From a virus (Duplodnaviria > Heunggongvirae > Uroviricota > Caudoviricetes): a stretch of DNA of 16,387 nt. The stretch's first letter is position 1, and the number at the start of each line of letters is the position of its first letter. The position numbers were made by a program, and so were the translations under genes. The DNA lies in IMG/VR virus record IMGVR_UViG_2711768071_000023. One strand, written 5' to 3'. The notes under the pieces were generated by a model. That model made no database searches. It was not told the DNA's origin and saw nothing but the letters and a program-made list of their open reading frames with translations. Positions 1,462-16,387 of the stretch are shown here, one piece after another.

Positions 1462-1543
1462 ATATGTCCTTTTATCACCAAATTAAGATAAGGCATTGAT
1501 TTAATTAAATAATTTGCACTGCAAAAAGTGCCAAAAATCGCAA

Positions 1544-1567
1544 ATTAACTACACCATTAACTACACC
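1544..1567. repeat. Perfect tandem direct repeat ATTAACTACACC x2 in the phoQ-proximal junction
   Basis: Two adjacent identical 12-mers read directly from the sequence, followed at 1584-1600 by AACAA motifs spaced 10 bp apart. Confidence 0.6.
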
Positions 1568-1932
1568 GTTCGGTGCACTGTATGAAACAACGTGGAACAA
1601 ATAGACACAAGAAATATACAGGCGGGTCATCTTTCCAGGGGAAAGCACGCCAATTCATGAGGGGCGTTAATGTCGATATGGGGATCCCCATAACGGGGCT
1701 ACCTGGCTTTTTTTCCGGTTAAATGTCAATCAGGCTGGTGGGTTTTACATACCCTTGATCACCGTAATGATGATTCAGATCTGCACCTTTCCACCAATGG
1801 TGGAAAAGCCCACAGCAGGCCGCCCAGCCTCCCCCAATGGGGGATTGTGGAAGAATCAACGGGTTAGGCCTTAATCATCTGCGTAATCATAAGTAATCAT
1901 AATGTTCATTCATCCAGCGCAATTTTGCGTTA

Positions 1933-1956
1933 TCGGGAATATCAAACAGTTACCGC
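1933..1956. repeat. 24-bp direct repeat, copy 1 (TCGGGAATATCAAACAGTTACCGC)
   Basis: Matches 2077-2100 at 23 of 24 positions; lies in the non-coding junction 144 bp from copy 2. Confidence 0.7.
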
Positions 1957-2076
1957 GCCGACTTCCTCAAATTGAGGTTTCCGAAAATATCAGCGGGTTA
2001 GCGATTAAGCTGACCATTAATTAAACTGCGAAAATGTCGTAGTTGTGAGGGGTGTAGCCAACCCATTTTTGGACCG

Positions 2077-2100
2077 TCGGGAATATCAACCAGTTACCGC
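2077..2100. repeat. 24-bp direct repeat, copy 2 (TCGGGAATATCAACCAGTTACCGC), spans the stop codon of the terminal island gene
   Basis: One mismatch relative to 1933-1956; includes the TAA (2094-2096, minus strand) of the 97-aa ORF. Confidence 0.7.
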
Positions 2101-2387
2101 CGCAACCGCTCCGGCTTCTTCCAGTGGTAAGTAATTTTTTCTTTCTCCTGGAACATCTCCACGCGGCGACGATATGACAACAACTCCAGAACTCTGGTGC
2201 GTATATTGCGTATATCCACGCCGTTAAGCTCGATACCGTCACGGCGCATCACCTCAGCCACCACACGCGCGTAATTTTCGGCTATCACGCTGTCCGGCTG
2301 CGTGGCCTCCTGTTTGCCTGCTTCCTGGCTGATTCCGGTAACGCGGCGGATTATTTTTAGTAGTTCGGTTTCGCTCATTCTCGTCAT
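2094..2387 (-). CDS. Hypothetical small basic protein (97 aa), last gene of the packaging operon
   Basis: ATG at 2387 overlaps the terL stop as ATGA (translational coupling). Arg/Lys-rich C-terminus. No family recognised. Confidence 0.6.
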   Translation of the reverse strand: MTRMSETELLKIIRRVTGISQEAGKQEATQPDSVIAENYARVVAEVMRRDGIELNGVDIRNIRTRVLELLSYRRRVEMFQEKEKITYHWKKPERLRR

Positions 2388-4045
2388 ACCCCATCAAACG
2401 CCGCAAGCCGCTCTTTGTGGCTGTCGCTCATATCAAATGCAAATTCCTCATGCTCTGCCTGGAATGTGCCAAACGCCATCAGCGCCGCAACGCTCGGGTC
2501 TATCTTGTTGGATGATTTTTTCTTGTTCGGCTTGATATTGGCGTTCGCGTCACTCTGCATCACAACATTACTCATTGACCAGGCCAGCACCGGATCGCCA
2601 CGATGCACAATCACCTTCCGGTTAACAAAAACTTCGAACGATTTCGCCGCCGGACTGAAACGAAGGTATGTTTGCGGGAACGGCTCCACCTCAAATCCTG
2701 CCCCCTGTAGCTGCGTCCTCAGGTGCGTGGCGTTCCATGTATCGAAGCCCACCAGCCTGATATTGAAATTCTCTGCATCCGCCATGATGTCATCACGGAT
2801 ACGGTCATAATCAATGCAGTCACCCGGTGTTGTGCGTATCCAGCCCGCCTTTACCCACTGGCGATAGATGGCGCGGTTTTTATTGGCGGGGTTCTGTAGC
2901 TGAAATTCCGGCAGATAGTGACGGGAAACCAGCATAATCTTTTTACCGACCGGAAAGGCATAGCACACGCTGGAAATATCGCTGGTTGATGATAAGTCCA
3001 GCCCCGCGTAGCACTCCTGCCCGTATAAATCCGCCTCCGCGAACGTTCCGGCGCACTCCGCCCATGCACCGTTACCCATCCACGGCGTAGCCCCCTGACA
3101 CCAGATATTGAATCGCTTGGTGAGCATTTCCACCCACTGCGACGGAATACCCCGCGCTTTCTGGATGGTTGAGGCCAGTTTTTCACGATCGACGGAAACA
3201 TCGATATTGGGATTCGCCTTTATCCACATCGCCGGATCGTCAACCTCGCTTTCATCATCCAGCTCGTAAATCAGCACGAACATGGATTCGTTCACCTCTT
3301 CACCATCCAGTATCTGGCAGCAATAGTCATAGTGTTGTTTACAGGCTGAAACAACGTTGCTCCCCGATGTGGTGATGGCAAATAACAGCCCCTCCGGACG
3401 CGCCCCCATTCCCAGTTCAAGCGCGGAATAAACCCCGTTGTCAGGGTGCAGGTGATATTCATCCACAATGGCAAGACTCGGGTTTGTACCTTCAATGGTT
3501 GCCGCTTTTGCTGCCAGTGGCTTTAACAGGCTGTTGGTTTTCGGGTGTATCACCTTGTGTGCCTGAATATTTACCCGCTTTCGTAACGGTCGGGATAAAA
3601 GGCACATCTGACGCGCATCATCAAACACGATCCGCGCCTGATCACGACTCACGGCGGCGGTGTAAATATCCTGCTGCCCGTTTTCCATAACCAGAAACCA
3701 GTTAGCCAGGATAGCGGCGACCGTGGATTTGGCATTTTTTCGCGGCACTTCAATGAATGCGCTGGTGTATTTGCGCCGTCCGGTGGCCTTAACCTTAAAG
3801 CCCAGGATGCACGCAAAGGCGAACTGCTGCCACGGCTCCAGCTCAATGGGGCTACCGCGCATTGCGCCTTTTACGTGCGGACACACCCTGGAAAAGGCAA
3901 TAAACCGCTCCACGACCTCCGGATCGAACGTGTAAAGGGGGTTTTCAAGGTCAGAAAAATACCGTTTAACGGCCTGTTTCAGTCGTTTACAGGCCGTAAT
4001 TTTGCCGTTTTTTACGCCTTCTGCGTACTCATGCCAGGCGGTCAA
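2384..4045 (-). CDS. terL: Phage terminase large subunit (553 aa)
   Basis: Long ORF whose translation has terminase ATPase and nuclease domain character. Lies directly downstream of terS with a 17-nt overlap. The ORF-track start at 4045 is a TTG codon, so the exact start is uncertain. Confidence 0.88.
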   Translation of the reverse strand: MTAWHEYAEGVKNGKITACKRLKQAVKRYFSDLENPLYTFDPEVVERFIAFSRVCPHVKGAMRGSPIELEPWQQFAFACILGFKVKATGRRKYTSAFIEVPRKNAKSTVAAILANWFLVMENGQQDIYTAAVSRDQARIVFDDARQMCLLSRPLRKRVNIQAHKVIHPKTNSLLKPLAAKAATIEGTNPSLAIVDEYHLHPDNGVYSALELGMGARPEGLLFAITTSGSNVVSACKQHYDYCCQILDGEEVNESMFVLIYELDDESEVDDPAMWIKANPNIDVSVDREKLASTIQKARGIPSQWVEMLTKRFNIWCQGATPWMGNGAWAECAGTFAEADLYGQECYAGLDLSSTSDISSVCYAFPVGKKIMLVSRHYLPEFQLQNPANKNRAIYRQWVKAGWIRTTPGDCIDYDRIRDDIMADAENFNIRLVGFDTWNATHLRTQLQGAGFEVEPFPQTYLRFSPAAKSFEVFVNRKVIVHRGDPVLAWSMSNVVMQSDANANIKPNKKKSSNKIDPSVAALMAFGTFQAEHEEFAFDMSDSHKERLAAFDGV

Positions 4046-4385
4046 GCTCGTCCTCTTCCTCTGTTTCCGGTGGATTTCTGCGGCGACTTACCGGGTCAAA
4101 ACCCAGCAAAGAAGCCATTTTGATCATTATTCTTTCAGCGTCAGCCTTTGCGCTCAGGGCGGGGTTTCTGCTCTCGCTGCCCTGACTGTTAACAATGCTG
4201 AACCCGCGCGTGGCAAGGTCTTCGACGGCTTTGCGGTATATGGAGTAGTTAACACAATACAGCTCCAGATTGCTCCAGTCGGCGGGGGTAAGGTCTTCCC
4301 GTCCGGAAAGCTGGCGCGATTTTTCCTTCCACTGCCTGACCGCGATTTCATCCAGGTAAGCGGGGGCTTTTGGTGGTCTTGCCAT
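4029..4385 (-). CDS. terS: Phage terminase small subunit, P27 family (118 aa)
   Basis: Internal ATG at 4385 gives MARPPKAPAYLDE... with the conserved P27-family pattern (W..L...G.LT.AD...LE.YC..Y, C-terminal GF.P.SRRR). The 47 upstream codons of the track ORF look non-coding. Confidence 0.85.
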   Translation of the reverse strand: MARPPKAPAYLDEIAVRQWKEKSRQLSGREDLTPADWSNLELYCVNYSIYRKAVEDLATRGFSIVNSQGSESRNPALSAKADAERIMIKMASLLGFDPVSRRRNPPETEEEDELDRLA

Positions 4386-4673
4386 GTTCTTTTTTCGCCC
4401 AATTATTTTCAAAAAAATTCCCGTGCACAAAAATTTGAGGAGGCGGTCGGTGTCCGGCAGGGACGGTTTCGTCCTGAAAACCACCCCCACCCCCTCTGAC
4501 GGCCTCACCAGCGATTGCGAAAACATTCCATGACCTCGCGGTCACGGTCGGTTAATTGCTTCGCTGTGGTGCGTTCTGTGCGCCCTGTCCTGTTGGCTTT
4601 GTGCCCTGTCTCCTGTGTCTTCCATAAGTCACGCTGCCTTATCAGTCCACGTATCAGCCTGGTTTGCTCCTGT
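4386..4673. other. Candidate cos / terminase-recognition region between HNH and terS
   Basis: 288-bp gap in an otherwise overlapping operon. Contains a GC-rich run CCACCCCCACCCCC (4481-4494), short hairpin 4458-4476, and direct repeats TGTGCGCCCTGTC / TGTGCCCTGTC (4577-4589, 4600-4610). HNH-cos-terS is the usual arrangement in HK97-like cos phages. Confidence 0.35.
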
Positions 4674-5114
4674 TCAGTCATCATCGCCATACATCCAGTC
4701 GTTACGGTGTGCTGCCCGTTCTTCCTGCTCGCGATACATGCCCGCCTTACGGTTCGCTTTCGTGGCTGGATCTTCCCGTGTCGTCTTACGGTTGTGGCAC
4801 GTCTGGCACAATGCCTGGTGGTTCCACTCAGGCCAGAAGAGAACATCACCGCCGCCATTGATGGGGATGATGTGATCCACCACAAGAGCTGGCGTATAAA
4901 TCCCCTTAGCCAGACAACGCACGCATAACGGGTTTTTGCTCAGGTACAGGGCGCGGTATTTGTCCCACTGTCGGGAATACCCGCGCGCGCGGCGGTGTCC
5001 CCGTCTGGCATCCTCTGCACGCCATACAGCCCGTCTGTGCTCTTCACACTTGCCGGACTTCACGCGCTTATTACAGCCCGGCTCAGTGCATCGCCTTAAT
5101 GGTTGCCACGGCAT
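4674..5114 (-). CDS. HNH endonuclease, packaging-associated (146 aa)
   Basis: Cys-rich N-terminus (CTEPGCNKRVKSGKCEEH) and HNH core (VVDHIIPINGGGD ... NHQALCQTCHNRKT). ATG at 5114 overlaps the connector stop by 1 nt. Preceded by SD GGGGGTG. Confidence 0.85.
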   Translation of the reverse strand: MPWQPLRRCTEPGCNKRVKSGKCEEHRRAVWRAEDARRGHRRARGYSRQWDKYRALYLSKNPLCVRCLAKGIYTPALVVDHIIPINGGGDVLFWPEWNHQALCQTCHNRKTTREDPATKANRKAGMYREQEERAAHRNDWMYGDDD

Positions 5115-5416
5115 CAGTACACCCCCACATCACGATAAACCGACCAGAGCGCAGAAATAGCCATAGGCAGTTCAGACTGCTCCACTGGTGAAACTGCTTC
5201 CCTGTTCTCGTACAGGAAAGCGATGTACATCAGGCAACCAACACGCATTGCCGGGGTAAATTCCAGCCCGTCTTCAAAACGTTTCCCGATATGCTTCTGG
5301 CAGGCTTCCAGCGCCGCATCGGTATACATTTTCAGAAGTTCGCCTTCACCGGATAAATCATCATCAAGTCGAAGATGTGCCCTGACTTCATCAGGTGTAA
5401 TTCTGGCTTCACTCAT
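5114..5416 (-). CDS. gp6-like head-tail connector / DNA-packaging protein (100 aa)
   Basis: Internal ATG at 5416 with strong SD AAGGGAG. Small acidic protein with the pattern typical of gp6-like head-tail connectors. Overlaps the portal stop by 8 nt. Confidence 0.65.
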   Translation of the reverse strand: MSEARITPDEVRAHLRLDDDLSGEGELLKMYTDAALEACQKHIGKRFEDGLEFTPAMRVGCLMYIAFLYENREAVSPVEQSELPMAISALWSVYRDVGVY

Positions 5417-6623
5417 CTTTTCTCCCTTTAATTTCCACAGTCTGTTTCCATGCCTGGCTGAACTCATCACCACCTTCACGCGGCGGCATACCCTCGCGTT
5501 CGCGAGCTTCGTTCGGATTCATGATCCCGCTCTTAATCCCTTTCTCATACGTGGCATAACGTTCGGTGGGTGTGGCGCGCAGTAAATCGGCTGAATCAAA
5601 CTCAACCAGATAACGGGTACCAGGTACGGGAGAAGTCACCAGCAAAGCGGCCTTGATTTGCTGTTCGAAGTTCGCCAGCCACGGGCGCATTGTCATGGTC
5701 AGAAATGCGCGGCTCGCCTCACTGAAATTGCTGTAGGTGCTGTTGCTGTATTCCTGAAGAAAAATCGGCGACACGTTGAACATCCTGGCGATGTCTTCAA
5801 TGGAGAAGCGACGGGAGGCCAGCCATTCCGCATCCTGGTTACTCATCCCCAGCTGCCTGTAATCCATGCCCCCTTCAAGGATTGGCGTTTTTCCGGCATT
5901 TTTCGCCCCCTTGTAGCGTTCCAGTGCGTCTAATGCCTGTTTACCTTTCACGCCGTCCAGCCATTCACCTGACGTGATAATCCCTGCCGCCATCATGCCA
6001 TCTTTCATAATGCTGGCTCCGTGACGCTGTTGAGCAAGGCCAAGCCCCAGCGCCTCACGGCAAATCGTGACGGGGGAACGCCCCAGAAAGCCATCATCCG
6101 AGGCATAGCGGAGATGCAGAACTTCTTCCTGTAAATACGTGCGCACCGTTCCTGTACAGGGTTCGGTGATGGTATAGCGGTATTTGTGTGTGCCTGTGCG
6201 TTCCGGTACAACACACCCCGGCGCATAAGGATGAAGTGATTTTGGCTGCCCGTCCCGCCCCCACTCAATAACCGCATAGGCGTTACCGTTCAGCAGGCAG
6301 TGACGCATCATTGTGCGTTTAAACTGGTAAGGTGTCAGGCACGAATTAGGCTGCTCATTCAGCAGAATATCTACCGGGTGACTGTCCAGCCATTCCCGCG
6401 CCTCTCTGCCCTTATCATTGCGTACCAGATACAGGTAACACGGCATCGTGGCCACCGCCTCAGCGATGACAGAAACCGCGTTCATCACAGCAGGCAATGA
6501 TTCAGCCGTCCCGGCAGAAACATATTCTCCGGATCCGGTATTTGGTACACCAGACAACGCCAGAAAATCATCAATGGACAGGTTACGCAGATCGCTTTTT
6601 TTACGACTAAAAGGCCACCACAT
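5409..6623 (-). CDS. Phage portal protein, HK97-like (404 aa)
   Basis: Internal ATG at 6623 (MWWPFSRKKSDL...). Size and sequence character typical of HK97-family portals. Lies between protease and connector. Confidence 0.88.
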   Translation of the reverse strand: MWWPFSRKKSDLRNLSIDDFLALSGVPNTGSGEYVSAGTAESLPAVMNAVSVIAEAVATMPCYLYLVRNDKGREAREWLDSHPVDILLNEQPNSCLTPYQFKRTMMRHCLLNGNAYAVIEWGRDGQPKSLHPYAPGCVVPERTGTHKYRYTITEPCTGTVRTYLQEEVLHLRYASDDGFLGRSPVTICREALGLGLAQQRHGASIMKDGMMAAGIITSGEWLDGVKGKQALDALERYKGAKNAGKTPILEGGMDYRQLGMSNQDAEWLASRRFSIEDIARMFNVSPIFLQEYSNSTYSNFSEASRAFLTMTMRPWLANFEQQIKAALLVTSPVPGTRYLVEFDSADLLRATPTERYATYEKGIKSGIMNPNEAREREGMPPREGGDEFSQAWKQTVEIKGRKDE

Positions 6624-6624
6624 A

Positions 6625-7185
6625 TCACAACCCCGCCAGTTCAGCCCAGCGATGACGATTATTTCCTGCCGGGCGTAATTCAGGGTACTGTGCAAACAAC
6701 GAACGGTGGGCAATCTCCACGCCGGATTCGGGATAAGCAGGCATCGATGTTATCGTGATTTCACGGAGTTCTGCTGCGGTTACAGTACGCAGATACGGTT
6801 TTTGCGCGATATTCCACTCCTCGCATAATGCGCGAAAGCCAAAGCTCATTCCTGTAATATCGCCACGTTCCACCAGCGTAAGCACATCTTTTCCAAGCTG
6901 GGTATTTGGCGGTGTCAGTTCAAAACGTAGCCCGGTGTTATCCTCAGTCAGTACCAGTGAGCCGGATTTGGTACGCCCCAGCAGTTGGGTATAGTCATGC
7001 TCATACAGACAGCGCACATCATTACCTGCCGCCAGATAGTCAGCAAAAGCCCCCGGCGTGAACTGTTCGCGAAACTCGTCCCAGATAATTTCTGAAAGGC
7101 TGTTCCAGCGAACGGCATAACCCACCAGTTTTTTATCGCTGGCGGTCAGTTCAGATGTACGGATTTCAAAATCGGTGTTTTTCAT
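6625..7185 (-). CDS. Prohead protease, HK97 family (186 aa)
   Basis: Internal ATG at 7185 (MKNTDFEIRTSE...) with SD GGAG. Translation resembles HK97-type prohead proteases (GYAVRWN..., ...GMSFGF...). Stop lies immediately upstream of the portal start. Confidence 0.85.
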   Translation of the reverse strand: MKNTDFEIRTSELTASDKKLVGYAVRWNSLSEIIWDEFREQFTPGAFADYLAAGNDVRCLYEHDYTQLLGRTKSGSLVLTEDNTGLRFELTPPNTQLGKDVLTLVERGDITGMSFGFRALCEEWNIAQKPYLRTVTAAELREITITSMPAYPESGVEIAHRSLFAQYPELRPAGNNRHRWAELAGL

Positions 7186-7234
7186 CGGTGTACTCCATAA
7201 AGCTGAAAAAGGAGGCCGAAGCCCCCTTTGCTCA

Positions 7235-8380
7235 TTACTTGCCAGCCTGAATTTCCAGAATCTTGATGGCGTTCGAATCCACCACACCACCGCCCAGATA
7301 TTTCTGGGTATAGATGTTAATGAATCCAGGCTCGCTGAAATCCGGACGGGTACGCGTACCGGTTTTATGGTCAACGATGAAATAACCGCGCTTAAAGTCA
7401 CCGACTGCAATCACACCGTCCGGCATAAATTCCAGATATTCAACCGGAAGCCCCAGCAGAGAATCAGGATCACCAGCCTGTAAACGATCGCGCCAGATGT
7501 AATCACCAGTGGCATTTTTCAGTTTTTGTGCGGAGGCGGCTGTATTTGAGTTCATCACCCATACAGCTTTTTTGCGGTACTTATTGCGCAGCGTAAATTT
7601 CAGGTCAATCAGCATATCGGCGCTGAGACTGCCAGTCACTTTTTTCGTCTGGAGCGTACCGAAAGGACGGGTTTTGTCATTATCCGTAGTGCGCGGGAAA
7701 GTCAGGAAACCTTTGGCTTTTTTCTCGCCATCACCGGAAACCAGATCCGTTTCTTCGGTATCAACGAAAGTGTCGCCAATTTCAGAAGATAACCAGCCCA
7801 TAATATCGACTTCGGAAAAATCGATAATTTCCTGAGTGGTTTTCGGGTAAGCGTAGATCGGATACAGGCGGATACTGACTTCATTCAGTTTTGGGGTTGC
7901 CGTCTGGTTACGTGCCGCACCTTCTTCGCCGTGTCCCACGACCGCACCCCCGGCAGAAACCAGTTGCTTAAATTCATTACTGTGAATGGTTTTAACAGTA
8001 CAGATTTTACGCATCACCGACTCATCAGAAAGCTGACGCATAATTTCTCTGTTCAGTTCCGGGATAACCGTATAACCACCATCAGCCGGGACACTGCCGG
8101 ACAGGTTGCGGGTTTCCCCGGTCAGAATGTAAGAGCGTAGTTCGTCTTTGGTGATTTTCTCTTCGACGGAAACACCTGGCTGGTTACGTTCTTCATCCGC
8201 AACAGCTTCAAGACGGGAGATTTCTGTGTCGAGGGAATCGGCTTTTGCACGCAGTTCATCAAACTGTTTGCCTTCGTCATCGTTCAGGCTGCGGTTTTCA
8301 CTGTCGGCTTTTTCCAGCAGGGATCGCATCTGGTTTTTCAGGGCGGTTTTTTGCTGGCGGAGTTCGATTAATTTCTTCAT
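7235..8380 (-). CDS. Major capsid protein, HK97 fold with N-terminal delta domain (381 aa)
   Basis: ATG at 8380. First ~100 residues are a coiled-coil-like scaffold segment (LRQQKTALKNQMRSLLEKA... LDTEISRLEAV) followed by an HK97-type capsid body. Confidence 0.9.
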   Translation of the reverse strand: MKKLIELRQQKTALKNQMRSLLEKADSENRSLNDDEGKQFDELRAKADSLDTEISRLEAVADEERNQPGVSVEEKITKDELRSYILTGETRNLSGSVPADGGYTVIPELNREIMRQLSDESVMRKICTVKTIHSNEFKQLVSAGGAVVGHGEEGAARNQTATPKLNEVSIRLYPIYAYPKTTQEIIDFSEVDIMGWLSSEIGDTFVDTEETDLVSGDGEKKAKGFLTFPRTTDNDKTRPFGTLQTKKVTGSLSADMLIDLKFTLRNKYRKKAVWVMNSNTAASAQKLKNATGDYIWRDRLQAGDPDSLLGLPVEYLEFMPDGVIAVGDFKRGYFIVDHKTGTRTRPDFSEPGFINIYTQKYLGGGVVDSNAIKILEIQAGK

Positions 8381-8573
8381 GAAGGTTTTCTCGTATTGGT
8401 TAAGATTCAGGACGTGAAACCAACACGGAGGGAGCGCCGCCCGACACTCTCGGCATCTCGCAGATCAACCCGGCATCGCGCAGGGGGTCAGGCGGCATTG
8501 TGGCGGCTCACGTCTGAGTGCCACACGCCAACATATACATAAAAATCAGTATGTAAACATCAGCCAGAATCAC

Positions 8574-8602
8574 CGAACAACCTGGAACAACCACGAACAA
8601 AT
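8574..8602 (-). promoter_or_regulatory. Three 10-bp-phased TTGTTC repeats upstream of the capsid operon
   Basis: Plus strand reads cGAACAAcc tgGAACAAcc acGAACAAat, i.e. TTGTTC x3 on the coding (minus) strand at exact 10-bp spacing. Sits just downstream of the 8615-8644 terminator and about 190 bp upstream of the capsid ATG. Confidence 0.45.
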
Positions 8603-8614
8603 AATTTACAAAAC

Positions 8615-8644
8615 CTGAAAAAAGGCCCGGAAAAAATCCGGGCC
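8615..8644 (-). terminator. Intrinsic terminator after the replication/accessory operon
   Basis: Perfect 8-bp stem GGCCCGGA / TCCGGGCC (8624-8631, 8637-8644) with a 5-nt loop, followed on the minus strand by TTTTTTC. Lies 10 bp past the stop of the 8654-8902 ORF. Confidence 0.7.
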
Positions 8645-8653
8645 TTTATCGCT

Positions 8654-8902
8654 TTATTGTTTCACTGGCTCCCGCATTCTGCGTCTTATTTTCCACAAAT
8701 ATTCGATCATCGCTTCCACCTGCTCACGGTTGGTTGCGAAAATTTCCCCGGTCAGTGAGCTACGCAGAAAATCATGATGATCCACAAAAAATAACGCATC
8801 GGAAGAAAGCAACCGACGATATTTTTTTGCTGTCGTGGTTTCCAGATCATCAAAACCATGAAGCTTTTTATGTTGCTGAACTTCTTCAAATGTCACTGGC
8901 AT
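8654..8902 (-). CDS. Hypothetical protein (82 aa)
   Basis: ATG at 8902 with strong SD AAGGGGGAT. Overlaps the stop of the ProQ/FinO-like gene by 10 nt. No family recognised. Confidence 0.5.
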   Translation of the reverse strand: MPVTFEEVQQHKKLHGFDDLETTTAKKYRRLLSSDALFFVDHHDFLRSSLTGEIFATNREQVEAMIEYLWKIRRRMREPVKQ

Positions 8903-9423
8903 GTATCCCCCTTTGCTGCCCGGCGCTGGCGCTTGTGCTTCTCATTCAGCACCATCAGCCGTGTTTCTGCCTCCTGCTGTTCCTGTGGTGTCACTTCCCC
9001 ACATGGCTGGCCTTTCAGATCGTAACGTGCGCCACCAGCTATCAGGGCGCGGTAATAGCGCGGAGACTGCGCATAGGATGCCAGCGTCGCACGTAATACC
9101 CCCGGCCCGAATGCCAGCCCCCTGACGGCGATATCCTGCATCAGGTCGTCGAATATCCCCACCTTAAGCGGCTTCGGTGCTTTATGGCTGAATAAGTCAG
9201 GCCACATCTCAGTGAGGCGGTTAACGCGTCGGCGGTTTTTGCGCTGCCTTTTGGTCATATGCTGCCACGGTGTCGCCCCTGTGGGCTTCTGCTGTGCGTT
9301 CTGATTGCCGGGTATCACTTTATGCGCCGATGTGGTTTTATCCTGCTCTTGCGCCGCCTGCGTCGTTTTCTGCGGCGTGCCGTAAATGCCTTTCGGCTTC
9401 CGGTTAATGGTCAGCGTTGTCAT
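8893..9423 (-). CDS. ProQ/FinO-domain RNA-binding protein (176 aa)
   Basis: C-terminal two-thirds aligns by eye with the ProQ N-terminal FinO-like domain (PLKVGIFDDL ... LRATLASYAQSPRYYRALIAGGARYDLKGQPCGEVT vs ProQ PLKIGIFQDL ... [35 protein letters not shown]). SD GGGGAAGG precedes the ATG at 9423. Confidence 0.8.
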   Translation of the reverse strand: MTTLTINRKPKGIYGTPQKTTQAAQEQDKTTSAHKVIPGNQNAQQKPTGATPWQHMTKRQRKNRRRVNRLTEMWPDLFSHKAPKPLKVGIFDDLMQDIAVRGLAFGPGVLRATLASYAQSPRYYRALIAGGARYDLKGQPCGEVTPQEQQEAETRLMVLNEKHKRQRRAAKGDTCQ

Positions 9424-9459
9424 GCCTTCCCCTGTAATTACTCTGTTCGCTGTTGTGAA

Positions 9460-9885
9460 TTAAAACGGTATGTTATCCCCGTACGGGTCATCGTGCTGGC
9501 TTGTCTGTTGTTTTGCCCTGTTCAGTGCGTCAGTGGCCTGGCCCTGTTGACCTTTTTTGCCGCCCGGTCGCGCCGTTCGCGCACTGATTACGCTGTCTGC
9601 AATAACCTGCCAGCCCTGCCGCGTTTCCCCGTTCTGGCCTGTCCACTGGCTCACCTGCATGTTACCCGCCACGCTCACCAGTTCGCCTTTGTGGTGTTTT
9701 GCCAGTGCGTCGGCCTGTCTGCCAAACGCCAGGACAGATAACCACATCGTCGCCGTTCCGTCATCTGCCTGGCTGCACGGCAGGGGAACCGCCATACTCG
9801 CCATCGCCATTTGTGTCCCTTTGCTGGTGGTCTTTAACTGCGGGTCAGCCACCAGCCGCCCGTAAGCCGCTATCTGTGCTGTCAT
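9460..9885 (-). CDS. ssb: Single-stranded DNA-binding protein (141 aa)
   Basis: OB-fold pattern comparable to bacterial SSB (GRLVADPQLK..., WLSVLAFGRQADALAKHHKGELVSVAGNMQVSQWTGQNGETR) and an acidic C-terminal tip ...DDPYGDNIPF resembling the SSB DDDIPF tail. ATGA overlap with the upstream ORF. Confidence 0.75.
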   Translation of the reverse strand: MTAQIAAYGRLVADPQLKTTSKGTQMAMASMAVPLPCSQADDGTATMWLSVLAFGRQADALAKHHKGELVSVAGNMQVSQWTGQNGETRQGWQVIADSVISARTARPGGKKGQQGQATDALNRAKQQTSQHDDPYGDNIPF

Positions 9886-10127
9886 GCTGTCTGCTCTCCG
9901 GTTTTAACGTTGATGGTTGTCACCTGTTCCGCTTCGGCAATCTCCCGTTCTGTCAGCGTGGCAAAGTTTGCTGCCGCCGTGGTCATGAATGCGCTTATCA
10001 GTTCGGGATGTGCTTTTGCGTACCCTTCTCCCGCGTTGCGGTCGATGATTTTTATCGCCACCCTCAGCCAGTGTTCTGTCAAATCAAGGGCGTGAGATTG
10101 TGGTTTTTTTGCGTGCTTCGTTGTCAC
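9882..10127 (-). CDS. Hypothetical protein (81 aa), GTG start
   Basis: Track ORF starts at a GTG (10127) preceded by SD GAGGT. Translationally coupled to ssb. No family recognised. Confidence 0.45.
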   Translation of the reverse strand: MTTKHAKKPQSHALDLTEHWLRVAIKIIDRNAGEGYAKAHPELISAFMTTAAANFATLTEREIAEAEQVTTINVKTGEQTA

Positions 10128-10178
10128 AGGCTTTACCTCACAGCAATAAAATAAAATTTTTGCATTTTAACCCTTCAC

Positions 10179-10401
10179 CTGTTCACCTTTTGAGATTTTC
10201 CCTTTTTATTCATAATGTTAAGGGGTGAACAGTTTCACAAAAACTATTCACCAACTGTTCACCACTGTTCACCCTTAAAGCTCAATAAATAATCAAAAAG
10301 GTGAACAGTGAATAGTTTGGTGAACAGTTCACAAATAACTGTTCACCCTATAATGTACTGATATAAAAGATATTTATAACAGGGTGAACAGTGGTGAACA
10401 G
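10179..10401. repeat. Iteron cluster, candidate replication origin
   Basis: Nine perfect copies of GGTGAACAG in both orientations (GGTGAACAG at 10224, 10300, 10319, 10383, 10393; CTGTTCACC at 10179, 10255, 10265, 10339) plus degenerate copies, several pairs at 10-bp phasing. An AT-rich stretch (10350-10380) is embedded. Lies immediately 3' of the primase-helicase gene. Confidence 0.75.
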
Positions 10402-10414
10402 TTATTCCATAAGT

Positions 10415-12229
10415 TTAATTTTTGCTGTCGTCATTTGTGACCGATGCACATGATGGCATACAGTCTTCTGAATCCTCTGTCAGTGTCACATTTGAACGCA
10501 AACCGTGCTTCGTTTTCCGTTTTATATACTCCCTGCCATATTCCGCCATTGCCCCCGGCATATCTTTACCGAAGCGCGTCAGTGTTACAGGTTTACCGAA
10601 TCCGTGTGCCCTCATATATGCCAGATAGGCGTGATAAAGATACCTGCGCGGACTGAACGGAATAATTTCGGCATTACCCACTAACAGACCATCACACATT
10701 ACCGACGACATGAGATAGCCACAGAAGTCCACCAGCGAATCGCCCTCGCGTTTTATCACCAGAGCTTCTTCTGATTTCTGCTGCTCATACAGCAGGCGTT
10801 TAGCTTCGTCCTGGTCAGAAAAACGAGTAAGCAGATGGCGAATCACAACCGCCAGCTCTCCTTCTATTTTTTCTGCCAGCATGGGGTCGCGCTCGTTCTC
10901 CGGTACAACCTCCGAAAAATTGAATATCACCCGACGACGTGAGATCCCCCCGCTGCGGTCACTGAATGACATGGCGTTATTGTTCACCGCCAGCACGACC
11001 GCCTGAATGCGTGTTGAGTAGGGGGCTTTATGCTTCGGGTCGATTGCCACCTTGTCACCGCCTGTAATGGCCTTAATTCCTGCGCCATCACCAGCGTAGC
11101 GGGTCATATCCGGCATGATAATCAGCGAAAAGCCAACCACTAACGCGCGTTCCCTTGCATCTTCCAGCGCCTTCATGCTTGCCGATACTGTGTTGGCCTT
11201 ACCCGCCAGCATAGTGCAAATCTCCGCCATCACGCTTTTACCACTTCCCCCTGGACCTGTTACCTCAATGAATAACTGCCAGTCGTACCGGTTCGCCAGC
11301 ACCATGAATAATGCAGCCAGCACGCGATCCGTCTTGCGGTCATTCTCTGCCACCGAGCAGCGTAACCACTTCCAGAAATTCGGCGCATGTGTTGCCAGCG
11401 TTTCCCCCTCTGCTGGTGGGCTGAAAGGTAATTCACTGGCAATTAACAACCAGTCGTTTTTGTTATGCTCCCGAAAATTACCTGTTCTGGTATCAAATAC
11501 CCCGTTACTGAATCCAATCAGGTTACGGGCTGTATTCCCCATTACAGGCAAACTTAACTTCATGGTATCGACCGCCGATTTAATGGCGTTCTGCGAATAG
11601 CTGATCTCCGCATCAATGAAAATCTGCGCCATAGCACGCTGTAACTCTTTATCCTGAATCGGCTCCCATACAACGCCGTTGTAATGGTGAACAGTGTCAG
11701 AGTCGGCATGAATCGCCAGTTCACCGCCATAATGTGCCAGGAGAACTTCGCCGCGCTGGCTTGCTCCCATCTGGTTAAGCGCCAGTGGTGCGGCGCTGTC
11801 TTCTGTTTTTTTCTTAACAGGAAGCTGAATCACCAGACCATCAGAAAGATTCTGGCGCTCACGGGCCAGATATTCGCGCCAGTTCTGCACCTCCTGACCG
11901 TGCATACCCTCAGGATAAAAATTTGCATCCTGTACGCCTGCCGCCGCCAGCTTCTGACCAATCGCCTTTATCATTACTGGCGCAAGATATCCGGCCCTGA
12001 ATATGCGCACGGATTTTCTGCCTTCCGGCACAATTTGCAGCTTATCCAGTTCGGATAACTGCTGCTCCCCAAGCCACACAGGAGGCTCATTATCTCCGGC
12101 CATACGCGCGTCATGTTCCTGCCATTGTTTTGCGTGTGACCAGGCATCACTACCCGCAAAAATAATGACTTCTGTTTCTTTGTGTTTTATGCCGCGTGAC
12201 TGCTGTTTTACGTTCGGTGCCAGTTTCAT
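10415..12229 (-). CDS. Replication initiator primase-helicase, P4-alpha/D5-like (604 aa)
   Basis: Walker A motif GPGGSGKS and downstream helicase-like region in the C-terminal half. Strong SD AGGGGGT. Position next to the iteron origin matches a pri-rep gene. Confidence 0.85.
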   Translation of the reverse strand: MKLAPNVKQQSRGIKHKETEVIIFAGSDAWSHAKQWQEHDARMAGDNEPPVWLGEQQLSELDKLQIVPEGRKSVRIFRAGYLAPVMIKAIGQKLAAAGVQDANFYPEGMHGQEVQNWREYLARERQNLSDGLVIQLPVKKKTEDSAAPLALNQMGASQRGEVLLAHYGGELAIHADSDTVHHYNGVVWEPIQDKELQRAMAQIFIDAEISYSQNAIKSAVDTMKLSLPVMGNTARNLIGFSNGVFDTRTGNFREHNKNDWLLIASELPFSPPAEGETLATHAPNFWKWLRCSVAENDRKTDRVLAALFMVLANRYDWQLFIEVTGPGGSGKSVMAEICTMLAGKANTVSASMKALEDARERALVVGFSLIIMPDMTRYAGDGAGIKAITGGDKVAIDPKHKAPYSTRIQAVVLAVNNNAMSFSDRSGGISRRRVIFNFSEVVPENERDPMLAEKIEGELAVVIRHLLTRFSDQDEAKRLLYEQQKSEEALVIKREGDSLVDFCGYLMSSVMCDGLLVGNAEIIPFSPRRYLYHAYLAYMRAHGFGKPVTLTRFGKDMPGAMAEYGREYIKRKTKHGLRSNVTLTEDSEDCMPSCASVTNDDSKN

Positions 12230-12513
12230 TTTTTACCCCCTGCGACCAGCATTTCACGAATTTTGCGGATATGACTTGCTGCACGTTTCTGATTTACGGC
12301 TTTACGATGGCCCACCAGCGTGAAATCACGCCGGAACTGATAAACAGGCATCACGCAGTCATATTCGTAGCCATCACGGCGGTAAGTGATGCGCCGTTCT
12401 GCCACGCCTTTTATCGTTACCGTGCCGCCATAGTTATCCCGGAAAATATCGCCGGGGCGGATTTCAGGCCGAGCGGGGCCGCTGGCAGTAAAGCCAGAAT
12501 TTTTCTTTTTCAT
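12226..12513 (-). CDS. Hypothetical protein (95 aa)
   Basis: ATG at 12513. Stop overlaps the primase start as ATGA. No family recognised. Confidence 0.5.
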   Translation of the reverse strand: MKKKNSGFTASGPARPEIRPGDIFRDNYGGTVTIKGVAERRITYRRDGYEYDCVMPVYQFRRDFTLVGHRKAVNQKRAASHIRKIREMLVAGGKK

Positions 12514-12519
12514 GTTTTT

Positions 12520-12738
12520 TTACTCCAGAGGCAGCTTTTTAGCGGCGAGCTCAATATCAGATGTCAGAGAAACCTGTGTATTTGCCAGGTCTAACAACAA
12601 AGAAATAAGAATTTCTTCTCTGCTATCGGATTTATCGGTGCTAAGGCTGTTCATCCACATATTGACGACTTCCCTGATTTTTTTCGCAGAGTGCAGGGCT
12701 TCAAATGCCAGGTCTTCAATATCATGTTTATTTCGCAT
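12520..12738 (-). CDS. Hypothetical small acidic protein (72 aa)
   Basis: Internal ATG at 12738 with SD GGGGG. Overlaps the upstream gene stop by 11 nt. Confidence 0.45.
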   Translation of the reverse strand: MRNKHDIEDLAFEALHSAKKIREVVNMWMNSLSTDKSDSREEILISLLLDLANTQVSLTSDIELAAKKLPLE

Positions 12739-12940
12739 AATCGCCCCCGCGTAGCTGGTCTGCACTAACACCCGATTTAGTGAGCATTTCAGAAAATCCC
12801 GCAAGAGTGCTGATAAATTCGTTTTCCATTAAACGGCACTGACATTTAACCCGGCCTTTTTCCAGATACACCAGTACGCGCCCCGTATAATCTGACGGCA
12901 CATTCAGCACTACAGGTAAGTGCGATTCATGATTATGCAT
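12728..12940 (-). CDS. Small protein, paralog B of a tandem pair (70 aa)
   Basis: SD AGGGGGTGA. Shares a motif with the adjacent 69-aa protein (TGRVLVYLEKGRVKC vs TGQLLVNVDKGRVVC). Confidence 0.55.
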   Translation of the reverse strand: MHNHESHLPVVLNVPSDYTGRVLVYLEKGRVKCQCRLMENEFISTLAGFSEMLTKSGVSADQLRGGDYAK

Positions 12941-13142
12941 GTCTCACCCCCTGAATATTCGCATTAATCATTCCGGCACGTTCTGCGAGTTCCTGTAATG
13001 ATTCCCTTGTTGCGACAATGGCTTCATCTGGCAGGTGGTAATTACACACCACGCGACCTTTATCCACATTGACCAGTAGCTGCCCGGTAAATTTCTCACG
13101 AAACTGAACGCGGTTAAGGTCGGTAAGTGACAGGTTAATCAT
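12933..13142 (-). CDS. Small protein, paralog A of a tandem pair (69 aa)
   Basis: SD AGGGGG. Paralogous to 12728-12940. 8-nt overlaps on both sides. Confidence 0.55.
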   Translation of the reverse strand: MINLSLTDLNRVQFREKFTGQLLVNVDKGRVVCNYHLPDEAIVATRESLQELAERAGMINANIQGVRHA

Positions 13143-13338
13143 GGTGTTCCCCCTGGCGAATACGGGCAGCGAATACCATCACGCAGCCATCAGGAGATTG
13201 CTGACGCGCTTCCTGTTCGCTGGTGGCCTCAATGGTAATCACGCGCGGTTGTGCCGTGCTCAGGGCGATAAAACGCCAGATGTATTTATTCAGGTTGTGC
13301 GAGTCCCGCCCTTGCGGGTGTGTGGTATGATTTCTCAT
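13135..13338 (-). CDS. Icd-like small protein (67 aa), first gene of the leftward early operon
   Basis: In-frame ATG at 13338 with SD GAGGT inside the 473-codon track ORF. Translation MRNHTTHPQGR...VITIEATSEQEARQQSPDGCVMVFAARIRQ resembles the Icd-like proteins of P4-type prophages as I recall them. Family assignment is from memory only. Confidence 0.5.
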   Translation of the reverse strand: MRNHTTHPQGRDSHNLNKYIWRFIALSTAQPRVITIEATSEQEARQQSPDGCVMVFAARIRQGEHHD

Positions 13339-13446
13339 AGCTACCTCGATACTCTCGTTATCGTTGGTGGTTAGAAGCCCCGTTACTGCTCCAACAGTGC
13401 GGGGCTTCGTCGTTTCAATTGCTGAATTGCATGTATCAGCACTTGT

Positions 13447-13500
13447 GGTATTCACATTACATTTAGGTGAATACCATTTCAAGTCTTTTTTGGTATTCAC
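13447..13500. promoter_or_regulatory. Operator-like repeats in the divergent control region
   Basis: Perfect inverted repeat GGTATTCAC-N11-GTGAATACC (13447-13475) plus a third direct copy TGGTATTCAC (13491-13500). Lies between the minus-strand Icd-like start (13338) and the plus-strand regulator start (13544). Confidence 0.5.
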
Positions 13501-13543
13501 TTTTGTATTACACTGCATCCCGTTATTAATGGGAGGTGCAAAC

Positions 13544-13849
13544 ATGTCCAGGAGTTCTGTTAACAATAAGTCACAGCAACTGAATGCCAGATTTCCACAT
13601 GAAGTAGTGAGTGGCATTGAGGCATCCCTACAGCCAGGGGAAACTAAAGCGAATTTTATAGTTACGGCTGTACGCGGTGAGATCGCCCGGCGCCAGGCAG
13701 AAGGAAGTGGAGAAAATCCCCTGGTTTCTTCGCTCGATGCACTGGCGCAGGTGGAAAAACTCGGAATCAAAGCCGCCGAGGAGATCGGGCAGCTCGTCAC
13801 TGTCGCACGTGAAGAACTCCAGCGCCGCAAGACCAAAGAACCAGAGTAA
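13544..13849 (+). CDS. Ribbon-helix-helix (Arc/MetJ-type) DNA-binding protein, candidate island repressor (101 aa)
   Basis: ATG at 13544 preceded by GGGAGGTG at 5-nt spacing. N-terminus QQLNARFPHEVVSGIEAS...ANFIVTAVRGEIARRQ fits the RHH beta-strand plus two-helix pattern. One of only two credible plus-strand genes inside the element. Confidence 0.6.
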   Translation: MSRSSVNNKSQQLNARFPHEVVSGIEASLQPGETKANFIVTAVRGEIARRQAEGSGENPLVSSLDALAQVEKLGIKAAEEIGQLVTVAREELQRRKTKEPE

Positions 13850-13906
13850 TCACCATCAGCGCCGTGGTGTAAGGTATTACGGCGCATTGCTATGCAGGAC
13901 AACACA

Positions 13907-14080
13907 ATGACCGATAAAGAATTGACCAAAACATTATCACCGGCACGGAAAAGACGGCGCAGAAAGATAGAGCATGAATCAGAAAGATTCGCGCCATGTG
14001 CTTTTGCCCTTGAGCAATTCCTTAAAGAGTACAGGGAAAAGCGCTCATTGCAGGTATGGCAACGAACTGAACCAGACTGA
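13907..14080 (+). CDS. Possible small basic protein (57 aa)
   Basis: ATG at 13907 (MTDKELTK...) in the same transcriptional direction as the RHH gene. Weak SD. No family recognised. Confidence 0.3.
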   Translation: MTDKELTKTLSPARKRRRRKIEHESERFAPCAFALEQFLKEYREKRSLQVWQRTEPD

Positions 14081-14256
14081 TTGCATTGCCCACCAGCCGC
14101 AAATGTGGCATTGTTGGCAATGCTCATGCGTTGGGGATAACGTGTAGCTTGTGTCGAGGGGCCACCGTAGCGGGTGGCCTTTGTTTTGCCCGTTATTCGG
14201 CAATTGTGGCGCTTCTCCACATGGTTGATATAATCCCACTGCTCAGATTCATTTTT

Positions 14257-14556
14257 TGCGCAGTAGGTTAATTGTTCACAAAGGCGCTCCGGCAACGGGG
14301 CGCTTTTTGTTTTTATTAGTTTGTAGAAACCTGACTCAGAGATAATGCTCATATTCTGATTGCCGTCAGGGGTGTAAGTTAAATTTACTCCCTTTTTATC
14401 ATCAAACATCTGCAACGCTCTGGCGTTAACAATATTGGTTTCACTCCCGCCAGTAAGGCCGGAAATAACCGGAATAATTTCGGCAAAATTTTGCAGATTC
14501 TGTTTTTCAGGACGAACGAAGCCCCGCCCTTGTTCGGGAGAATATCCAGTATTCAT
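14257..14556 (-). other. Possible coding segment: N-terminal ~100 codons of the 473-codon ORF, 3' end unresolved
   Basis: ATG at 14556, 52 bp downstream of alpA. Residues ~60-90 (TPDGNQNMSIISESGFYKLIKTKSAP) resemble the core of Bro-N-type domains. The frame has no stop until 13135 and runs antisense through the RHH gene and the 14284-14314 terminator. Confidence 0.3.
14284..14314 (+). terminator. Intrinsic terminator on the plus strand
   Basis: Stem GCGCTCCG / CGGGGCGC (14284-14291, 14296-14303; 7 Watson-Crick pairs plus 1 GU) with GCAA tetraloop, followed by TTTTTGTTTTT (14304-14314). Confidence 0.6.
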
Positions 14557-14608: not shown

Positions 14609-14797
14609 TTAGTGAACTGCCTCGCAGCTGTCCTTCCATGCCAGAACTTCGGATAAAGACCAGCCAACGGAACGACCGCCCAGCTTACGCCGTGATGGGA
14701 ATTGTCCGGCTTTTTCCAGGCGGTACCGACATGAGCGGCTCAGGCCTGTAAGTTGCTGACATTCTTTTTCACGTATAAAGCGATCTGTGCTTAACAC
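14609..14797 (-). CDS. alpA: AlpA-family transcriptional regulator (62 aa), GTG start
   Basis: Translation MLSTDRFIREKECQQLTGLSRSCRYRLEKAGQFPSRRKLGGRSVGWSLSEVLAWK matches the AlpA family HTH pattern. GTG start at 14797 preceded by AAGGGGGAA. Confidence 0.8.
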   Translation of the reverse strand: MLSTDRFIREKECQQLTGLSRSCRYRLEKAGQFPSRRKLGGRSVGWSLSEVLAWKDSCEAVH

Positions 14798-15157: not shown

Positions 15158-16387
15158 TTATATTTCTCTGGCTATTGGCAATGTGGTTACGTTTTCATGT
15201 GTTCCCGCCAGTATCCCTAACCGCTCCGTCCACATATCCAGCGCGTCACGTTTCGCATCCAGATAACGGGAATGGTTATAGACTCGTTGCATCCCTGGCA
15301 TCTGATGACCTGTAAGCTGCTCCACGACGTGAGGATCCACGCCTAAATCGTTCAGCATCGTTGTAAAGGTGCGCCGGATGTCATGCAGTGACCAGTGAGG
15401 GTGTTTTAGCCTCCTGTGCGCTAATCTGCCGTACTGCGACACGCTTGTTTCCTGTTTCACTTCCCCCAGCAATAAGCCCGTGTGCCTGTTCTGCTCCACC
15501 AGCTGCGTGACGAACGGCAGTATTGCTTCCGGTATGGGCCGGAATATTGCCACCTTCGTTTTGCTGTGTTCTTTCGGCACGGTCCAGAGCATTTCGGTAA
15601 AATCCCACTCGCTGATCTCCGATAACCTCAGTTCTACCGTCCGGCATCCGAAAACAATCAGGAGGCGGATTAGTGCGACGTAGTAAGGGGAAAATATTTT
15701 TTTGTCCAGTGCCTGCAATAATTCGCCAAGTTCTTTGGTGCTTAAGACACGCTCGCTTATATCCGGTTTTTTCCCAACGTCCGCCACACTCATATCATCA
15801 AGAACGTTGCTGATTGCATAGCGCCGCCTCCGGCAGAACTTAAGCGCCTGTTTGCACGTCTGTAGCAAGAATCCGGCAGTAACAGGCGTTCGCTTTGCCA
15901 CCTGGTCAAAACAGGCCAGCCAGTGCCGTAGCTCGCATTTATCCAGCGGCATAGCACCAATGTGCTGTATTACGTGATTATTAAGGCGCTTTTTCAGGGC
16001 GGCATAATCCACGCGGTTTTCCTTTACGTAAGACTCAAGCCAGTAGGTAAGCGCATCGCCAACCGTTACGGGCTTTAACGCTTTCTGTACGGTGTAATTC
16101 ATCTCATGACGTGGATTTTTCCCCTCAGCAAGCCAAGCGCGACACTGTGCCGCTTTTTCCCTGGCAGCTTTCAGACTCAGATCAGGATAATTTCCCAGCT
16201 TAATCCGTTCCGGTCGTGCTCCCCTTCCCGTTCCGGCCCTGTAGGTGAAATACCAGGTTAAAAGGCCGCTGGTTGAATGCCTGACGCTCAGGTTTCCACC
16301 GTCATTAAGAAAGGCTGTTTTTTGGGCGGGTGTGCCGTTGATTTTCCTCAGCTGTGTATCGCTCAGTTTGTTAAGTGCTCTGCTCAT
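15158..16387 (-). CDS. int: Tyrosine integrase, P4 type (409 aa)
   Basis: ATG is the last three bases of the window; stop TAA at 15158-15160. N-terminal arm-binding-type region (LSDTQLRK..., GLLTWYFTYRAG...) and C-terminal catalytic region with HDIRRT and a tyrosine near the C-terminus. Transcribed inward, so its att site lies beyond 16387. Confidence 0.9.
   Translation of the reverse strand: MSRALNKLSDTQLRKINGTPAQKTAFLNDGGNLSVRHSTSGLLTWYFTYRAGTGRGARPERIKLGNYPDLSLKAAREKAAQCRAWLAEGKNPRHEMNYTVQKALKPVTVGDALTYWLESYVKENRVDYAALKKRLNNHVIQHIGAMPLDKCELRHWLACFDQVAKRTPVTAGFLLQTCKQALKFCRRRRYAISNVLDDMSVADVGKKPDISERVLSTKELGELLQALDKKIFSPYYVALIRLLIVFGCRTVELRLSEISEWDFTEMLWTVPKEHSKTKVAIFRPIPEAILPFVTQLVEQNRHTGLLLGEVKQETSVSQYGRLAHRRLKHPHWSLHDIRRTFTTMLNDLGVDPHVVEQLTGHQMPGMQRVYNHSRYLDAKRDALDMWTERLGILAGTHENVTTLPIAREI

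Follow-up and report, generated by a model that had tools for sequence, protein, structure and literature searches.

The two small proteins of 69 and 70 amino acids encoded side by side at positions 12728 to 13142 of the window (the whole stretch of 16,387 nucleotides analysed here), which we call A and B, are distant relatives within a single small family, PHROG 340. Their genes occupy a slot in the early operon of a PICI-type satellite whose contents appear to be exchanged as cassettes. Our tentative proposal is that the two proteins serve as accessory modules that dimerize and bind a protein of the host or of a competing phage, and we put the probability of this reading at roughly 45%. Gram-negative PICIs are widespread vehicles of gene transfer, and the genes that lie between alpA and the primase gene in these elements have never been given functions. 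What is new is that this slot is organized as a cassette array with a standard junction, that a common cassette in it belongs to a family absent from Pfam and common to temperate phages, and that the PHROG 340 family recurs as two domains. In addition, an operon related by its layout has a published growth-arrest phenotype. As the evidence stands, the A/B pair is an unremarkable case of uncharacterised accessory early genes.

The satellite and its early operon

Positions 1-1461 of the window correspond to the end of phoQ, and are followed by an element of ~15 kb on the minus strand. Across 92% of its length, this element shares 97.6% identity with annotated elements in the phoQ/roxA interval of other E. 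coli genomes. The satellites called cf-PICIs are defined by integrase, alpA and pri-rep genes and by capsid, protease, portal, connector, HNH and terminase genes of their own; they have no tail or lysis genes, are about 15 kb long and occupy a chromosomal att site (bioRxiv 10.1101/2022.09.08.507074). The gene set of an annotated phoQ-roxA element is exactly that of a cf-PICI, and the open reading frames (ORFs) of the window include the element's own terminase, portal, protease, capsid, connector and HNH genes. This content fits a capsid-forming PICI-type satellite. cf-PICIs undergo AlpA-driven, helper-dependent induction and combine their own small capsids with helper tails, and the window element resembles them in its gene content. 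The features that concern us are these:

15158-16387, minus strand: integrase gene (ORF)
14609-14797, minus strand: alpA (ORF), upstream of the Icd-like gene, past the divergent YlcI/YnfO-like gene
13544-13849, plus strand: YlcI/YnfO-like gene, divergent from the Icd-like gene (NF041551, E 1e-16)
13339-13543: divergent control region between the Icd-like gene (minus) and the YlcI/YnfO-like gene (plus)
13135-13338, minus strand: Icd-like gene, 67 amino acids (NCBIfam NF033153, E 9e-20; PHROG 6196; RefSeq annotation of relatives)
13135-13153, minus strand: junction from the Icd-like gene to A; GGGGG at 13153-13149, then ATGATTAA (13135-13142), with an 8-nucleotide overlap
12933-13142, minus strand: paralogue A, 69 amino acids (ORF; PHROG 340, E 5e-23; N-domain type)
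12933-12951, minus strand: junction from A to B; GGGGGTGAG at 12951-12943, then ATGCATAA, with an 8-nucleotide overlap
12728-12940, minus strand: paralogue B, 70 amino acids (ORF; PHROG 340, E 4e-20; single-domain type)
12520-12738, minus strand: ORF for a helical protein of 72 amino acids, h72 (weak PHROG 2196 match; 11-nucleotide overlap with B)
12226-12513, minus strand: DUF4222 gene (Pfam PF13973, E 1e-25)
10415-12229, minus strand: primase family protein, Pri-Rep type (RefSeq 'DNA primase family protein' in locus L003; D5_N/DUF5906 in the L009 homologue)

The operon thus reads Icd-like gene, A, B, h72, DUF4222 gene and primase gene, the last two overlapping by 4 nucleotides. The preliminary description correctly reported adjacent ORFs of 69 and 70 amino acids, which lie on the minus strand and overlap by 8 nucleotides. 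It also placed them at the head of the early operon. They are indeed early genes of a PICI-type satellite, but the pair, second and third in order, is not at the operon head, because the Icd-like gene comes first and alpA is located further upstream.

Two diverged members of the PHROG 340 family

The paralogy of A and B, originally proposed from a shared core motif, is confirmed by formal alignment. In BLASTP, residues 18-69 of the two proteins form an ungapped alignment (29% identity over 52 amino acids, E 5e-9), and their Smith-Waterman score of 78 compares with 21.7 ± 4.1 for shuffled sequences, none of 20,000 of which scored as high (z 13.6). The motifs originally cited are residues 19-37 in each protein. 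Both proteins match the PHROG 340 profile from end to end (A, E 5.1e-23 over residues 1-67; B, E 3.7e-20 over residues 1-69), and both match an independent HMM of 25 family members (E 1e-22 for A and 3e-29 for B). Estimates of dN/dS are about 0.15 for A, comparing the window with the O157 copy, and about 0.17 for B, comparing the window with a 56%-identical B-type copy for which dS is saturated; both genes are evidently under purifying selection.

PHROG 340 is a small family: word-based and exhaustive profile searches of 1.8 billion cluster representatives yielded 86 at E<1e-3, and a 90%-identity collection yielded 400 proteins. Named members are nearly all from Enterobacterales, and their annotation is nearly always 'hypothetical'; forms fused to a CHC2 domain are named DNA primase or CHC2 zinc finger proteins. 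Pfam, NCBIfam and PADLOC contain nothing for A, B or the 25 family members, a PADLOC match of one member (E 0.06) being at chance level and A having none, and the only PHROGs matched by A and B are of 'unknown function'. We found no paper that assigns a function to the family or to genes of the slot, and the sole lead in the literature is the ECOR61 locus discussed below.

PHROG 340 includes Fels-1 STM0898.2n and 'hypothetical proteins' of lambdoid prophages in Klebsiella, Citrobacter and Salmonella. Like A and B, these phage copies are small early genes within strings of overlapping ORFs. However, they are single genes of 78-84 amino acids located in the early-left operon between the repressor and integrase genes, whereas in the window two diverged copies are neighbours in the operon of a satellite, in the interval from the Icd-like gene to the DUF4222-primase genes.

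The family unit is about 65 amino acids long and consists of an extended N-terminal segment, a β-hairpin that carries a consensus F/Y-T-G-R ... G motif, and one amphipathic helix. In the alignment of 25 members, G20 and G29 are the sole invariant positions. Structure prediction, which the preliminary description had recommended, places a hairpin and a helix in both proteins. The AF2 model of A has low confidence (pLDDT 65), with a hairpin at residues 21-37 and a helix at 46-55, and that of B, made from 33 sequences, reaches a pLDDT of 81.4 and shows the β-hairpin at residues 21-37 and the helix at 46-56 after an extended N-terminal segment. No matches to the B model (pLDDT 81) were found among solved folds and viral predicted folds. 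When solved structures were searched by sequence, B had no match and A had one at chance level (E 1). Of 15 members tested, 14 have pI values of 4.6-6.8, in the neutral to acidic range.

A weak resemblance connects the hairpin with MORN_2 (YwqK-type) repeats, which bind proteins. The family profile matches five repeat proteins (E 1e-5 to 1e-3) through the hairpin motif F/Y-x-G-x4-Y-x-x-N-G; in the reverse direction, none of the 25 family members matches Pfam MORN_2 (PF07661), even at E 10. MORN_2 proteins are arrays of repeats, whereas the family has one hairpin capped by a helix, and the likeness, being confined to one hairpin, may be convergent.

Rare fusions join the family domain to separate DNA-binding modules, namely Bro-N and the CHC2 zinc ribbon. 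In contigs of the Citrobacter koseri type (L013 412-816 and L014 2421-2825), a DnaG-type CHC2 zinc ribbon and the family domain form a protein of 132-134 amino acids in a satellite-like context containing AlpA. The cluster of such fusions has 16 members on several contigs.

Ancestry of A and B

Proteins of 117-121 amino acids that consist of two fused family domains are found in E. coli (357 cluster members), Hafnia (10), Cedecea (3) and Serratia (4). These homologues, annotated as 'hypothetical' or 'prophage' protein, occupy the same slot, in the order Icd-like gene, fused gene, DUF4222 gene and primase gene. Their first domain is orthologous to A, and their second (C-type) domain is without the N-terminal segment and resembles neither A (20% identity) nor B (28%). 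The fused homologues hold both domains in one polypeptide, whereas the second copy in the window is a separate, full-length gene of B type.

In a neighbor-joining tree, which is based on only 61 core columns and is thus to be read with caution, A groups with the N-domains of the fused homologues from E. coli, Cedecea, Hafnia and Serratia, and B groups with single-domain forms. A is 61% identical to the N-domain of the E. coli fusion of 121 amino acids, versus 26% identical to B over the core. In tblastn searches B is 44% identical to homologues in Klebsiella prophages and 39% identical to that of Fels-1, with a further homologue in phage LMessi; these B-type genes are located in the early-left operon, between repressor and integrase. 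No match to A was found when phage genomes were searched by tblastn. B is consequently nearer to its homologues in temperate phages (44%) than to A (26-29%). The two are also distributed differently, since O157 satellites carry A without B and CFT073-type satellites carry B without A. Both are present in only 5 of 5,426 complete E. coli genomes, and part of the A/B region occurs in 721.

A and B evidently belong to anciently separated subfamilies, and they assort independently. A recent tandem duplication is rejected because the tree, the identities and the independent assortment all oppose it. The earlier suggestion of a local duplication diversified against two helper targets is not supported, on the same grounds and because B-type genes are present in temperate phages. 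We also rejected a toxin-antitoxin pair, as the genes are paralogous and no toxin-antitoxin profile matched.

Some chimeric E. coli members look like recombination products: P0024 and P0031 seemingly arose by exchange between the two repeats of a fused A-C gene, and P0030 seemingly by the joining of A to an adjoining PHROG 5146 cassette.

A variable slot with a standard junction

The interval between the Icd-like gene and the DUF4222 gene holds zero, one, two or three family domains in satellites that are otherwise related. The DUF4222 gene forms its conserved downstream edge, and is at the same position in every locus examined. The contents of the slot, from the Icd-like side, are as follows:

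Window, L001 and L017: A, B and h72
L002 (uropathogenic strain, clone D i14): helical PHROG 5146 protein, B and h72
L015 (O157): A, PHROG 2512 protein and PHROG 2196 protein
L016: PHROG 5146 protein, fused A-C, PHROG 24341 protein and B-type protein
L009 to L012: fused A-C only
L003 (closest cf-PICI): two helical proteins, with zero family members

L003 is 99.4% identical to the window over positions 1-12520, has no similarity at 12521-13146, and is again similar from 13147. The replaced segment is exactly h72, B and A, and L003 has unrelated helical genes in its place. Positions 10959-13416, which include this segment, are 99.1% identical in L017, which is a different, prophage-embedded satellite from strain AST85. 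In these alignments, h72, B and A move as one block, and the small genes of the slot are evidently exchanged as cassettes. The PHROG 2512 protein (154 amino acids, L015 2045-2509) corresponds to the PHROG 5146 protein plus the PHROG 24341 protein (L016 3184-3408 and 2600-2833, respectively). Other cassettes of the slot thus occur both split and fused, and fusion and fission therefore seem to be general in the array.

The boundaries between the small genes share a common form. At the A-to-B junction, the B start codon (12940-12938) overlaps the A stop codon (12935-12933) within ATGCATAA, and the Shine-Dalgarno-like GGGGGTGAG lies inside the end of A, 4 nucleotides upstream of the B ATG. The start of A overlaps the stop of the Icd-like gene within ATGATTAA in the same manner. 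The junction can be written as CAGGRGGTG-N3-4-ATG-NNT-AA, and occurs at all small-gene boundaries of the slot, both in the window (12726-12751, 12933-12957 and 13135-13159) and elsewhere (L001-L004, L009, L015 and L016); its recurrence at cassette boundaries was counted in six loci. It probably supplies the homology for cassette exchange, and is possibly a recombination site. The overlapping start and stop and the internal Shine-Dalgarno-like sequence also bear out the view of the preliminary description that the two genes are arranged for translational coupling, and we infer that A and B are coupled in this way.

The common overlapping junction also explains why all cassettes start with M-x-N/K and many end in ..IQGVxHA. 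We considered the conserved M-x-N start and the ..IQGVxHA tails as functional motifs and rejected them, since codons 2-3 of a gene hold the TAA of its predecessor, whose tail in turn holds the Shine-Dalgarno sequence and the ATG, which makes these motifs by-products of the junction.

In L017 (positions 1-3503, strain AST85), RefSeq annotates a 'tail tip protein J' of ~1,500 amino acids that begins directly after the DUF4222 gene with a 4-nucleotide overlap. Over its first ~1.27 kb (L017 2233-3503), this coding sequence matches the beginning (5' part) of the primase gene (window 10959-12229) at 99% identity. The J coding sequence may be a primase-J fusion or an artefact of annotation or assembly.

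Possible functions of A and B

We suggest that the small PHROG 340 unit is a module without enzymatic activity that would bind other proteins and work as a dimer. In the window the dimer could be an A·B heterodimer or homodimers of each protein, and in other satellites a pseudo-dimer could form within the fused two-domain proteins. Soon after induction the module would bind a protein of the host or of a competing phage, and its function would be accessory, outside core replication, regulation and packaging. A role of A and B in phage-host or phage-satellite conflict is possible.

Several observations lead to this proposal. Dimerization is suggested by the recurrent two-domain fusions, by the orthology of A with their first domain, and by a minimal hairpin and helix that has no match as a monomer fold. 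A heterodimer would not be obligatory, because O157 satellites carry A without a family partner. An accessory function is indicated by the range of zero to three domains per slot and by L003, which is without A and B despite its near identity to the window over 1-12520. We favor protein binding over DNA binding because of the neutral to acidic pI values, the attachment of the domain to Bro-N and CHC2 modules, and the weak MORN_2 likeness of the hairpin. Since homologues are found in the early-left operons of temperate phages, the function is presumably common to phages and satellites. Published work on EcCICFT073 and EcCIEDL933 has targeted int, alpA, pri and the packaging and post-origin genes, and the slot lies outside these targets. 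EcCIEDL933, the prototype of the cf-PICIs, should carry A only, judging by the related O157 copy, L015.

A and B could instead be replication accessory factors that cooperate with DUF4222 and the primase-helicase of the satellite, perhaps through recruitment or modulation of the host replisome or primase. In satellites the family is always found just upstream of DUF4222 and a primase or RepA helicase gene, and this adjacency and the CHC2 zinc-ribbon fusions of Citrobacter koseri fit a replication role equally well. However, lambdoid prophages keep the family in the early-left operon, away from their replication genes, while their DUF4222 remains with the replication genes on the other side of the repressor. 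Also, related satellites with the same DUF4222-primase arrangement lack the family. We regard a replication role as unlikely.

The ECOR61 prophage locus raises another possibility. This locus consists of six linked genes, including an Icd-like gene followed by two overlapping small ones, and a primase gene; a phage accessory gene, orf24, triggers growth arrest, all six genes are required for reconstitution, and Tn5 insertions that act as suppressors were recovered in the Icd-like gene and in each of the small genes (Silas et al., bioRxiv 10.1101/2023.04.06.535777). In the window this six-gene layout recurs, with an Icd-like gene, an 8-nucleotide overlap, two small genes and a later primase gene, and A and B could accordingly be parts of an Icd-like growth-arrest (superinfection-exclusion) module that is fired by an incoming phage protein. 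The requirement for all six genes and the positions of the suppressors favor such a role. However, the ECOR61 small genes (QOYT01000045.1, 8940-9132 and 9131-9317) encode 61 and 63 amino acids and are comparable with A and B in layout, the ECOR61 Icd-like protein has 121 amino acids and the Icd-like core in the window 67, and the phenotype data pertain to the ECOR61 locus only. The Tn5 insertions are probably polar on downstream genes (our consideration, not that of the preprint), the likely effector according to the preprint is the Icd-like protein, and the family also occurs in phage operons with no called Icd-like gene nearby. No family motifs were present among the accessory genes tested by Silas et al. 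Membership in a growth-arrest module of this kind is, in our view, improbable.

A more elaborate conjecture, which we consider quite improbable, is that the PHROG 340 unit is an undescribed minimal dimeric fold, a MORN-like hairpin plus helix, that would serve as an adaptor or sensor of the Icd-like operon. By binding a protein of the incoming phage or of the host, it would decide between growth arrest, which would exclude competitors, and productive replication of the satellite, and the interchangeable A, B and C types would set the specificity for the target.

The preliminary description suggested that small early genes such as A and B encode helper-interference or derepression factors, duplicated locally and diversified for two helper targets. 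On this reading they would be functional analogues of P4 epsilon or of the P1 antirepressor encoded downstream of icd. In P1 immI and in the P4 left operon, antirepressors follow icd and CI RNA. The window shares with P1 immI (c4 RNA-icd-ant) and the P4 left operon (CI RNA, epsilon, alpha) the coupling of small early genes downstream of an Icd-like ORF and, in the satellite, upstream of a primase gene, but the resemblance is positional only. The early position directly downstream of the Icd-like gene stands, and the high variability of the slot is what would be expected of conflict genes. Against this, A and B belong to ancient, independently assorting subfamilies, and no profile annotated as antirepressor or interference in Pfam, NCBIfam or PHROGs matched either protein. 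Rfam gave no hit at the gathering score and no C4 or CI antisense RNA in E-value mode, and we dropped an immI-like reading with such an RNA upstream of icd for this reason. Moreover, helper-type temperate phages themselves encode B-type homologues (Fels-1, Klebsiella, LMessi), which argues against a satellite-specific exploitation or derepression of helpers, and the closest cf-PICI relative (L003) is without the family. Helper interference of this kind is distinctly unlikely.

Finally, a role as small regulators that bind DNA (for instance as excision cofactors, or as dimeric repressors of the β-hairpin or ribbon type) is very unlikely for A and B: although they are small, probably dimeric and encoded in a regulatory early position near a control region with repeated 10-mers, members are neutral to acidic, no DNA-binding family matched, the domain in fusions is attached to other dedicated DNA-binding domains, and occupancy of the slot by the family varies.

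The control region and the Icd-like reading frame

The control region at 13339-13543 contains three copies of TGGTATTCAC, at 13446-13455, 13467-13476 (inverted) and 13491-13500, and a perfect 9-bp hairpin, GAAGCCCCG-N17-CGGGGCTTC, at 13374-13408. The repeats and the hairpin are candidates for operator and leader elements. A search of the minus strand of this region for a consensus sigma-70 promoter found none.

An open frame of 473 amino acids (13135-14556, minus strand) begins with a weakly Bro-N/Ant-like N-terminus, runs antisense to the YlcI-like gene and ends as the Icd-like C-terminus. The sole Ant-like signal in the window is in the separate upstream frame at 13850-14556. RefSeq annotates the equivalent of the frame as a single 'Icd-like' coding sequence in L001, and the frame is broken in L002, L003 and L017. 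It is probably a decayed antirepressor-like gene combined with chance read-through. For ECOR61, Silas et al. (bioRxiv 10.1101/2023.04.06.535777) mention an 'Icd-like protein with long N-terminal extension'.
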